Shown here piece after piece: positions 13,509-14,297 of a stretch of 40,860 nucleotides of DNA. This DNA is from a virus. Taxonomy: Duplodnaviria > Heunggongvirae > Uroviricota > Caudoviricetes. The stretch covers positions 1-40,860 of the IMG/VR virus record IMGVR_UViG_3300024507_000282; one strand, 5' to 3'. Below the pieces are notes generated by a model. That model was given only the letters and a program-made list of their open reading frames with translations. It did not search any database and had not been told where the DNA came from. The position numbers and the translations under genes are program-made. The first letter of the stretch is position 1. Every line of letters starts with the position of its first letter.

Positions 13509-14297
13509 ATGGCATGTAGCGGAACCTTTTGTAATCAAAACAGTAGTGGAACAACGACCTGTTTTAACCATCGTGGTGCGTGTTCAACAAACCGCCCACT
13601 ATCTCCAAGTGCAGAATTTGCAATAACCTCGGGTCGTATTACAGCGGCAGACATTGAAGACTTGCGTAGTAAAATTGACGCTGAACTACAAAGATATCAA
13701 TTGCACTTGACCAACAGTGGCACTATTAATCATTTTGGTGTTGTTTCAAGACTTGAAACTAGTGCATACGGCACTAGTACCTTAATTTCCGCTTCACATA
13801 TTAATAATATGGAAACTATGGTTCAGGGAATTCTTAACGTTAATGAACCAGTTGGATCTAACTATGCAGTATATACTAATCCTGCAGATGCTACAGGTGG
13901 TAATAACGTTTATAGTGCTGGATCAATTGCAACAACGACTCACTGGATTACTTTACGTGACAAATATAATGTTATGCGTCAGGACTGTATTTGTAACTCA
14001 GACTGTACGTGTAATGCTGTATGTAACTGCCACAATGACTGCGGCTGTAACTACAGTGATGAAAGACTAAAACAAAACATTAAATTCATTGGCACTAGAG
14101 AAGGTATTAACATCTACTCTTACAATTACACCTGGGACCCAGAAACAAAGTATATCGGTGTAATGGCACAGGAATTATTAGGTACAGAATACTCAGATGC
14201 AATCGAGTTGGGCGAAGATGGATTCTTTAAAGTCCATTATGACAGATTGCCAAATAAAGGAGAACTTTGGAGCGAACCAACAACTTTAAAGGATTAA
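13509..14297 (+). CDS. Cys-rich protein with C-terminal peptidase S74 intramolecular chaperone (tail spike/fibre-like)
   Basis: ATG 13509; 4 Cys in first 25 aa; 8-Cys tract, then SDERLKQNI...GVMAQEL...VHY (S74; Ser 14055-57 and Lys 14070-72 intact). Confidence 0.85.
   Translation: MACSGTFCNQNSSGTTTCFNHRGACSTNRPLSPSAEFAITSGRITAADIEDLRSKIDAELQRYQLHLTNSGTINHFGVVSRLETSAYGTSTLISASHINNMETMVQGILNVNEPVGSNYAVYTNPADATGGNNVYSAGSIATTTHWITLRDKYNVMRQDCICNSDCTCNAVCNCHNDCGCNYSDERLKQNIKFIGTREGINIYSYNYTWDPETKYIGVMAQELLGTEYSDAIELGEDGFFKVHYDRLPNKGELWSEPTTLKD
13983..14054 (+). repeat. Four tandem 6-aa (18-nt) repeats DCICNS-DCTCNA-VCNCHN-DCGCNY
   Basis: Read directly; ends immediately before the S74 catalytic Ser. 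Confidence 0.9.

Follow-up and report, generated by a model that had tools for sequence, protein, structure and literature searches.

The DNA analyzed here, referred to throughout as the window, comprises 40,860 nucleotides (positions 1 to 40,860) of the IMG/VR virus record IMGVR_UViG_3300024507_000282, which is assigned to the Caudoviricetes. Our subject is a gene at 13509-14297 and its product, P0001, in which a cysteine (Cys) repeat is joined to a Peptidase_S74 domain, and which is encoded next to two radical S-adenosylmethionine (SAM) enzymes carrying SPASM domains. The features that define this locus are the following.

11096-12121, + strand: rSAM_A, a 341-residue radical SAM enzyme with a SPASM domain (Pfam Radical_SAM and Fer4_12)
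12102-12335, + strand: small acidic, probably helical open reading frame (ORF) of about 77 residues between the radical SAM genes; it has homologs at other loci, and its start codon is uncertain
12332-13507, + strand: rSAM_B (P0002), a 391-residue radical SAM/SPASM enzyme (Pfam Radical_SAM)
13509-14297, + strand: P0001, the Cys-repeat/S74 protein of 262 residues (ORF translation, Pfam, homolog alignment)
13509-13595, + strand: N-terminal Cys/His cluster of P0001, residues 1-29, with C3, C8, C18 and C25 (homolog alignment)
13983-14054, + strand: four [D/N]-C-x-C-[N/H]-x hexads, residues 159-182, the predicted mature C-terminal end (position table)
14055-14294, + strand: short Peptidase_S74 domain (intramolecular chaperone, autoprocessing), residues 183-262, with S183 and K188 (Pfam)
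14299-14916, + strand: d205, a 205-residue partner gene and conserved neighbor

The genes are tightly packed: rSAM_B stops 1 nucleotide before P0001 starts, and d205 starts 1 nucleotide after P0001 stops. We take the ATG at 13509 as the real start because full-length homologs begin with MACSG, which makes a longer TTG start at 13479 unlikely. P0001 contains 12 Cys residues, namely C3, C8, C18, C25, C160, C162, C166, C168, C172, C174, C178 and C180, and none between residues 26 and 159. The four hexads read DCICNS, DCTCNA, VCNCHN and DCGCNY and are directly followed by S183 (14055-14057), the residues D-E-R-L, and K188 (14070-14072), a Ser-Lys spacing of 5. A preliminary description made from the letters of this DNA had reported four Cys in the first 25 residues, a Cys-free middle and four hexads abutting Ser183 of SDERLK at this spacing, and the translation agrees with it on each count. 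It had also assigned the C-terminal part to the S74 family with a Ser-Lys dyad. Pfam bears this out: Peptidase_S74 (PF13884) matches residues 183-223 from profile position 1 with 25.7 bits (cutoff 22) when all of P0001 is searched, and residues 183-262 alone score 28.5 bits over profile positions 1-49 of 58. Judged by sequence, this match is far beyond chance, and the dyad is conserved.

Does the Cys protein travel with the SPASM enzymes, and do the enzymes travel with it? Among the viral loci found through the Cys protein, down to 26% identity, 18/18 have rSAM_B directly upstream and d205 downstream, and rSAM_A is present in 17. Two more loci, in which the Cys block forms the C-terminus of proteins of 789 and 619 residues, show the same rSAM_B/Cys protein/d205 trio, which is therefore kept in 20/20 loci found in this way. 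The reverse test started from rSAM_B and covered 38 viral loci. A member of the P0001 family lies directly downstream in 28 of these and another Cys repeat in four, so that 32/38 carry a Cys repeat in all; in two further loci long downstream ORFs run past the end of the DNA examined, and in four nothing comparable is present. The other repeats are either (CxCxCNY)n heptads with 17-35 Cys, followed by an S74 stub, or (CHSN/D)n tetrads. Since a downstream Cys repeat is kept even though the type of repeat differs, the enzyme evidently stays with a Cys repeat, as is expected of an enzyme and its substrate.

Both enzymes retain the residues of their class. In rSAM_A the CxxxCxxC motif and C233, C250, C272, C275, C281, C285 and C300 are conserved in 17-18 of 18 homologs; in rSAM_B, C18, C22 and C25 and the SPASM residues C256, C274, C319, C322, C327, C330 and C356 are invariant in 19/19. 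The best NCBIfam match of both is PapB (NF047865), with 112 bits for rSAM_A and 81 bits for rSAM_B. QhpD comes second for rSAM_A, and the CrpC family (TIGR04463) is among the matches of rSAM_B. Weaker matches, below equivalog cutoffs, include the CXXX-repeat, SCIFF, anaerobic sulfatase and mycofactocin maturases as well as the CrpC family. The best solved relative of both enzymes is CteB (5WGG/5WHY), to which their alignments start at CteB residues 97-106. PapB, a ranthipeptide maturase, as well as CteB and QhpD all form thioethers on Cys.

Because two SPASM genes lie directly upstream of P0001 and are co-conserved with the Cys block in both directions of search, enzyme-installed thioethers are our leading explanation. 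At a probability of roughly 0.55, P0001 would be a thioether-stapled fiber end resembling a ribosomally synthesized peptide with post-translational modifications (RiPP), with S74 as an optional, cleavable chaperone. From homology and gene linkage, on which all functional readings of the module rest, we infer the enzyme-to-substrate relation, the thioether chemistry, the cleavage, the trimerization and the fiber product. The maturation module would consist of SPASM radical SAM enzyme A, the small helical protein, SPASM radical SAM enzyme B, the Cys-repeat protein and the chaperone-like d205. P0001 would be the protein substrate of the adjacent SPASM pair, which would turn the Cys thiols of the C-terminal hexads into ranthionine- or sactionine-type thioethers and might modify the N-terminal Cys cluster as well. 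Candidate acceptors are the conserved neighboring Asp, Asn or His residues. Two stretches, N163-x-x-C166 and N169-x-x-C172, agree with the NxxC pattern of NxxcB (PMC9389541). PapB is tolerant of differences in spacing and is also able to work with C-terminal residues (PMC12373016). Crosslinking of this kind could take place in a reducing cytoplasm and would give an end that redox conditions do not affect. By homology, the S74 domain would aid folding of the preceding beta-structure, probably as a trimer, and would then release itself by a cut between Y182 and S183, so that the protein ends in ...DCGCNY. Several lines of evidence, each of them weak, point to a role in a fiber: the S74 domain, a tail-fiber PHROG match, flanking structural genes, the long versions of the protein and the chaperone-likeness of d205.

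The preliminary description had envisaged a mature trimer ending in 24 Cys and 3 His, in the form of a crosslinked knot, a metal- or iron-sulfur (Fe-S)-loaded tip, or a disulfide ladder. The count holds for the tip if the protein is a trimer; the whole mature trimer would contain 36 Cys, because four N-terminal Cys remain on each chain. The crosslinked knot comes nearest to the thioether-stapled end, except that gene context and an enzymatic origin had been left out of consideration. The other two tips, which keep a minor share of probability, leave the linkage to the SPASM genes unexplained.

Several points weigh against enzymatic stapling. Both enzymes score far below the PapB equivalog cutoff of 340 bits and are not members of that family. 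Neither has the N-terminal RiPP-recognition domain found in PapB and CteB, because the radical SAM motif starts at residue 12 (rSAM_A) or 18 (rSAM_B). Curated families of radical SAM targets do not include the Cys block: NCBIfam yields no family for P0001 or for four Cys-repeat relatives, and the profile of the CXXX-repeat radical SAM target, TIGR04114, has no match in the whole 104,860-base record. Gene linkage is no proof of an enzyme-substrate relation. Besides the two enzymes, the cluster has nine more radical SAM genes and a sugar pathway, and some of the radical SAM chemistry may act on small molecules. The S74 domain in the clade of P0001 is short (80 residues) and lacks a predicted C-terminal helix, so that its competence for cleavage is putative. 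Finally, the CxC ladder that would be buried in a trimer could equally bind metal, on the model of HxH iron sites.

A word-indexed search returned 154 close homologs of P0001, all metagenomic. In an alignment of 120 homologs, C160, C162, N163, C166, C168, N169, C172, C174, C178, C180, Y153 and Y182 are invariant, and S183, D184, R186, L187 and K188 are each conserved in at least 90%. At the N-terminus of the aligned homologs, C18, R22, C25 and N28 each reach at least 90% as well; one subclade lacks C3 and C8, and distant family members carry CX3-4C runs there. A sulfatase-type formylglycine motif at C25 (C-S-T-N-R) was considered and rejected, R29 not being conserved. A profile of the S74-less part of P0001 matched 334 representative clusters (E ≤ 0.001; 50%-identity clusters). 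In 80 representatives of such clusters, tabulated position by position for forms with eight repeat Cys, these eight residues and Y182 are present in 100%, N169 in 97%, D165 in 90%, and Asp or Asn at position 177 in 99%. Each hexad has Asp or Asn just before its first Cys and His or Asn just after its second. The notation that suits one repeat best is [D/N]-C-x-C-[N/H]-x. C168 is missing from a variant of the block with seven Cys.

Could the tip be loaded with metal? The axial CxC pairs of a trimer would then bind Fe, Zn, an Fe-S cluster or a metal-thiolate cluster, and the radical SAM genes would serve another purpose or share the Fe-S supply. The i, i+2 spacing of the Cys residues is the same as that of the HxH motifs which form octahedral iron sites from three chains (PMC6116203). 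The His or Asn after the second Cys and the Asp or Asn before the first speak for metal binding, as does an Fe-S biogenesis gene in the cluster of a relative. The spacing CxC-x3-CxC resembles plant type-1 metallothioneins, although the Pfam search gave no metallothionein or other family match. P0001 departs from the HxH type in that its motif is Cys-x-Cys, with one His per chain (H175), and octahedral sites made of six thiolates are unusual. N169, D165 and V171 are more conserved than is typical of metallothioneins. Above all, metal binding leaves the coupling to SPASM genes unexplained, which is kept in 20/20 and 32/38 loci and across hexad, heptad and tetrad repeats. We therefore regard a metal-loaded tip as unlikely.

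The same residues might form disulfides, either as a ladder or transiently, between or within chains, and thereby lock the trimer or bring it into register, as has been proposed for P22 tailspike. The auto-chaperone assembly of that protein involves a triple beta-helix and reactive Cys residues at the C-terminus (PMC3357383), and in P0001, too, the Cys block stands just before an auto-chaperone domain. Several members, however, have an odd Cys total of 11. Moreover, the cytoplasm in which the protein is made is reducing, and the obligatory SPASM neighbor would have no role. Disulfide locking thus seems improbable to us.

In MyRF (dyad S587/K592) and endoNF (dyad S911/K916) the cut falls just before the Ser (PMC8326128), so the cut in P0001 is predicted between Y182 and S183. 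We classified what follows ...C[N/H]Y in 266 family members. A full S74-like tail is present in 131; 47 end in a stub of at most 16 residues (12 in most) of the form SDxRLKxxIxY[CL]; 27 end exactly at ...C[N/H]Y and 15 carry one or two extra residues; nine have other tails, and 37 lack the strict Cys-block pattern. Thus, 42 members stop 0-2 residues past ...CxC[NH]Y, and the S-D-x-x-x-K motif follows the block in 178/266.

In some lineages the domain is divided between two ORFs. At L005:3233-3965, and likewise in L006 and L007, the first ORF ends ...CNYG and an overlapping ORF in the +1 frame starts MGN-SDQRLK and matches the S74 profile from position 1; the domain is thus separated at precisely the site of the predicted cut. 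At L008:6001-6770 the stub carries the dyad, and the next, overlapping ORF matches profile positions 18-55. Naturally split S74 domains of this kind, in which an ORF ends 12 residues after the catalytic Ser, recur across divergent lineages (about 35 representatives); the stub-type split is also seen in P0075, P0080, P0101, P0103 and P0115-P0121. Programmed frameshifting was considered for the forms with the 12-residue stub. In L008, just six codons of the second frame can be read before a stop, and no slippery heptamer is present. On one other contig the second ORF begins on the last base of the stop. From these sequences, separate translation of the split S74 ORFs seems more likely than frameshifting.

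No S74 domain is found in the distant viral members L019-L023 or in the bacterial members described below. The tail classes support Y182|S183 as a real functional domain boundary, as far as sequence can tell, with cleavage at this bond in P0001 predicted by homology. Because S74 is dispensable in many lineages, the Cys block, rather than cleavage, is the conserved core of the family, with S74 as an accessory.

Another possibility is that P0001 is a sacrificial scaffold. The radical SAM array, together with the sugar enzymes, would turn its C-terminal residues into a small cofactor or natural product, after the pattern of mycofactocin or pyrroloquinoline quinone (PQQ), and S74 cleavage would free the C-terminal Tyr. 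The terminal Tyr is invariant, a small protein is encoded between two SPASM enzymes, and the cluster contains a sugar pathway along with glycosyltransferase (GT)-like genes. C-terminal residues are possible targets of PapB (PMC12373016), and the mycofactocin maturase is among the weaker matches of the enzymes. Yet many natural forms have one or two residues past the Tyr, and 'CNY' is an internal repeat unit in the heptad variants. The conserved helical domain of 130 residues and the versions of 600-800 residues are also unlike disposable leaders. We give this possibility little credence.

The AlphaFold2 (AF2) monomer of P0001 is confident only for the three-helix middle domain, and the predicted local distance difference test score (pLDDT) falls below 50 at residues 167-181, within the Cys block. 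No helix is predicted after residue 223, and P0001 ends 40 residues past the AQELL motif; its relatives L008, L018 and L060 carry a C-terminal tail that is predicted to be helix-like. Foldseek of the P0001 model against PDB returned nothing at E ≤ 0.001, and a wide VIA search with the same model gave generic helical matches with Z ≤ 6.5. The MyRF ICA domain (7DC3) aligns to residues 197-250 with Z 3.1 and 23% identity. A trimer prediction with three copies of P0001 and alignment A1 scored 0.00 and has no bearing either way.

Pfam finds no family in residues 1-182, 150-190 or 1-40, even at E ≤ 10, and the profile of alignment A1 gives chance-level matches only against PDB sequences. In the phage genome collection, P0001 is matched only in its S74 part, by structural proteins of Microcystis and Brucella phages, and there is no match at the DNA level. 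The PHROG match of P0001 to tail fibers is weak.

Some family members and relatives show peculiarities of their own. The repeat relatives downstream of divergent rSAM_B homologs lie at L055:3607-4775, L060:3597-4205, L070:3525-4085 and L063:3612-4133; L055 has two tandem copies of the heptad-repeat relative, and heptad forms reach 35 Cys. The recorded product of the family member P0265 (L027:815-1570) needs TAG to be read as Gln, which suggests a stop-codon-recoded phage. At L022:7196-7486, just after the Cys protein, a 96-residue ORF looks like a duplicate of the Cys-rich, helical part at that protein's N-terminus.

Of the two small partners, the ORF at 12102-12335 has homologs in 14/18 viral loci and also in L028/L029 (Halobacteriovorax) and L030, a Bdellovibrionales metagenome-assembled genome (MAG). 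No Pfam family passes threshold for it; our guess is that it may be a partner or a stand-alone recognition protein. The AF2 model of d205 (pLDDT 86) shows an N-terminal beta domain and long C-terminal helices, with weak leads to the DnaK substrate-binding domain (E 0.03) and to DUF4376/tail-assembly-chaperone-like proteins (E 0.02-0.1).

The gene for P0001 belongs to a stretch that has eleven radical SAM genes and leads on to sugar-nucleotide genes; GT-like genes are also present. Given this setting, might P0001 be an Fe-S carrier or electron donor for the eleven enzymes, rather than a substrate? Its Cys-dense sequence and the location of its gene inside the array are compatible with such a role. 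It fits poorly with the S74 domain, the tail-fiber PHROG similarity, the variable number of repeats and the fusion to long fiber-like proteins, and we consider it very improbable.

Upstream of the cluster lie an HNH endonuclease gene (window 8162-8674, PHROG E 7e-28) and, in relatives, a gene for a DUF4815 protein of more than 2000 residues. Downstream it is flanked by a virion structural protein (window 32421-34043, phrog_1645) and by an ORF of more than 1926 residues with a weak tail-fiber match (window 35081-40858).

A scan of prokaryote genomes placed the module in two Halobacteriovorax chromosomes and one Bdellovibrionales MAG (loci L028, L029 and L030; L033/L034 = G001:C1:1709000-1748999). 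One Halobacteriovorax genome shares synteny with window 10362-32007 over about 20 genes, whose identities are roughly 25-58%. The bacterial cluster is flanked by shikimate-pathway, TolC-like, prolyl-oligopeptidase and MutY-like genes. Since these are of the housekeeping type, the bacterial copy is no evident prophage, and the presence of the whole module among Halobacteriovorax housekeeping genes indicates that it works as a self-contained unit. The bacterial Cys protein, 183 residues long, stops at ...CGCHY and contains no S74 domain. L033:4487-6067 (- strand), located at the far end of this cluster, encodes a protein of 526 residues. A type IV pilin N-methylation motif (GFTLAE...) stands at its N-terminus, and a Peptidase_S74 domain (E 7e-16) at its C-terminus.

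Stapling by enzymatic thioether formation has been described for short antimicrobial peptides, for one enzyme subunit (QhpC) and, since 2026, for one archaeal protein (CrpA). In our literature searches, neither a viral protein nor a fiber with an S74 chaperone was reported to be stapled in this way; a T4-like marine viral genome with 12 radical SAM genes has been mentioned without analysis (PMC5332604). The components, S74 on the one hand and SPASM maturases with Cys-rich targets on the other, are thus known, while their combination, its occurrence in jumbo phages and predatory bacteria, and the plasticity of S74 appear to be unreported. If P0001 is stapled as proposed, phages would be hardening an exposed protein end, produced in a reducing cytoplasm, by RiPP-type chemistry, and part of the large radical SAM arrays seen in T4-like jumbo phages would gain a substrate. 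The cultivable Halobacteriovorax could provide a genetic system for the module. A broader proposal, which we hold tentatively and at less than even odds, is that these proteins form a new class of ribosomally made, radical-SAM-stapled proteins. Here, dedicated SPASM enzymes would make a triple-stranded Cys ladder into thioethers, both at the tip of a phage fiber and at that of a related module which predatory Bdellovibrio-like bacteria carry next to a pilin-like S74 protein. S74 would act as a built-in, optional 'follower-peptide' protease, and the type and number of repeats would co-diversify with the enzyme.

How does P0001 compare with known systems? The HxH iron sites, at which T4 gp37, the R-pyocin fiber and the P2/phi92 spike bind Fe(II) (PMC6116203), similarly place ligand-x-ligand repeats along a fiber end, which is probably trimeric in P0001 as well, but the ligand there is His instead of Cys and no radical SAM partner has been reported. 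The cysteine annulus of P22 tailspike (PMC3357383) is likewise a Cys cluster near the C-terminal auto-chaperone region of a trimeric phage adhesin, yet it consists of three Cys per chain that form no repeat, and neither S74 cleavage nor a modifying enzyme is involved. K1F endosialidase (endoNF) and the S74/ICA domain of MYRF share an equivalent Ser-x4-Lys dyad in a domain that follows a stalk which S74 helps to fold. Theirs has a C-terminal trimerizing coiled coil, whereas the phage copy has 80 residues and none is predicted; unlike in endoNF and MYRF, S74 in the wider family of P0001 is optional, split over two ORFs or absent.

Among the radical SAM systems, the ranthipeptide and SCIFF pairs PapA/PapB (freyrasin) and CteA/CteB (5WHY) have the three-cluster SPASM architecture common to the phage enzymes. 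The targets of PapB and CteB are Cys thiols of repeated motifs, and the acceptors are Asp, Glu or Thr, but their substrate is a short peptide with CX3D motifs, whereas the presumed phage substrate has 180-800 residues and CxC hexads. The QhpC/QhpD pair concerns the gamma subunit of quinohemoprotein amine dehydrogenase, a protein subunit in which a SPASM enzyme forms thioethers of the Cys-Asp and Cys-Glu types; QhpC, a small subunit of an enzyme, differs in that it has three crosslinks and neither repeats nor S74. In Methanococcus voltae, the SPASM enzyme CrpC installs ranthionines on the adjacent, Cys-rich CrpA (PMC13692751, 2026), which is a direct precedent for the proposed stapling of P0001. 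CrpC has an N-terminal recognition domain, which the phage enzymes lack, and CrpA, an archaeal and cellular rather than viral protein, has 17-residue repeats and no S74; we found no sequence homology between CrpA and P0001. What the two systems have in common is a Cys-rich protein, not a short peptide, that carries repeated Cys motifs at its C-terminus and is encoded adjacent to a SPASM radical SAM gene.

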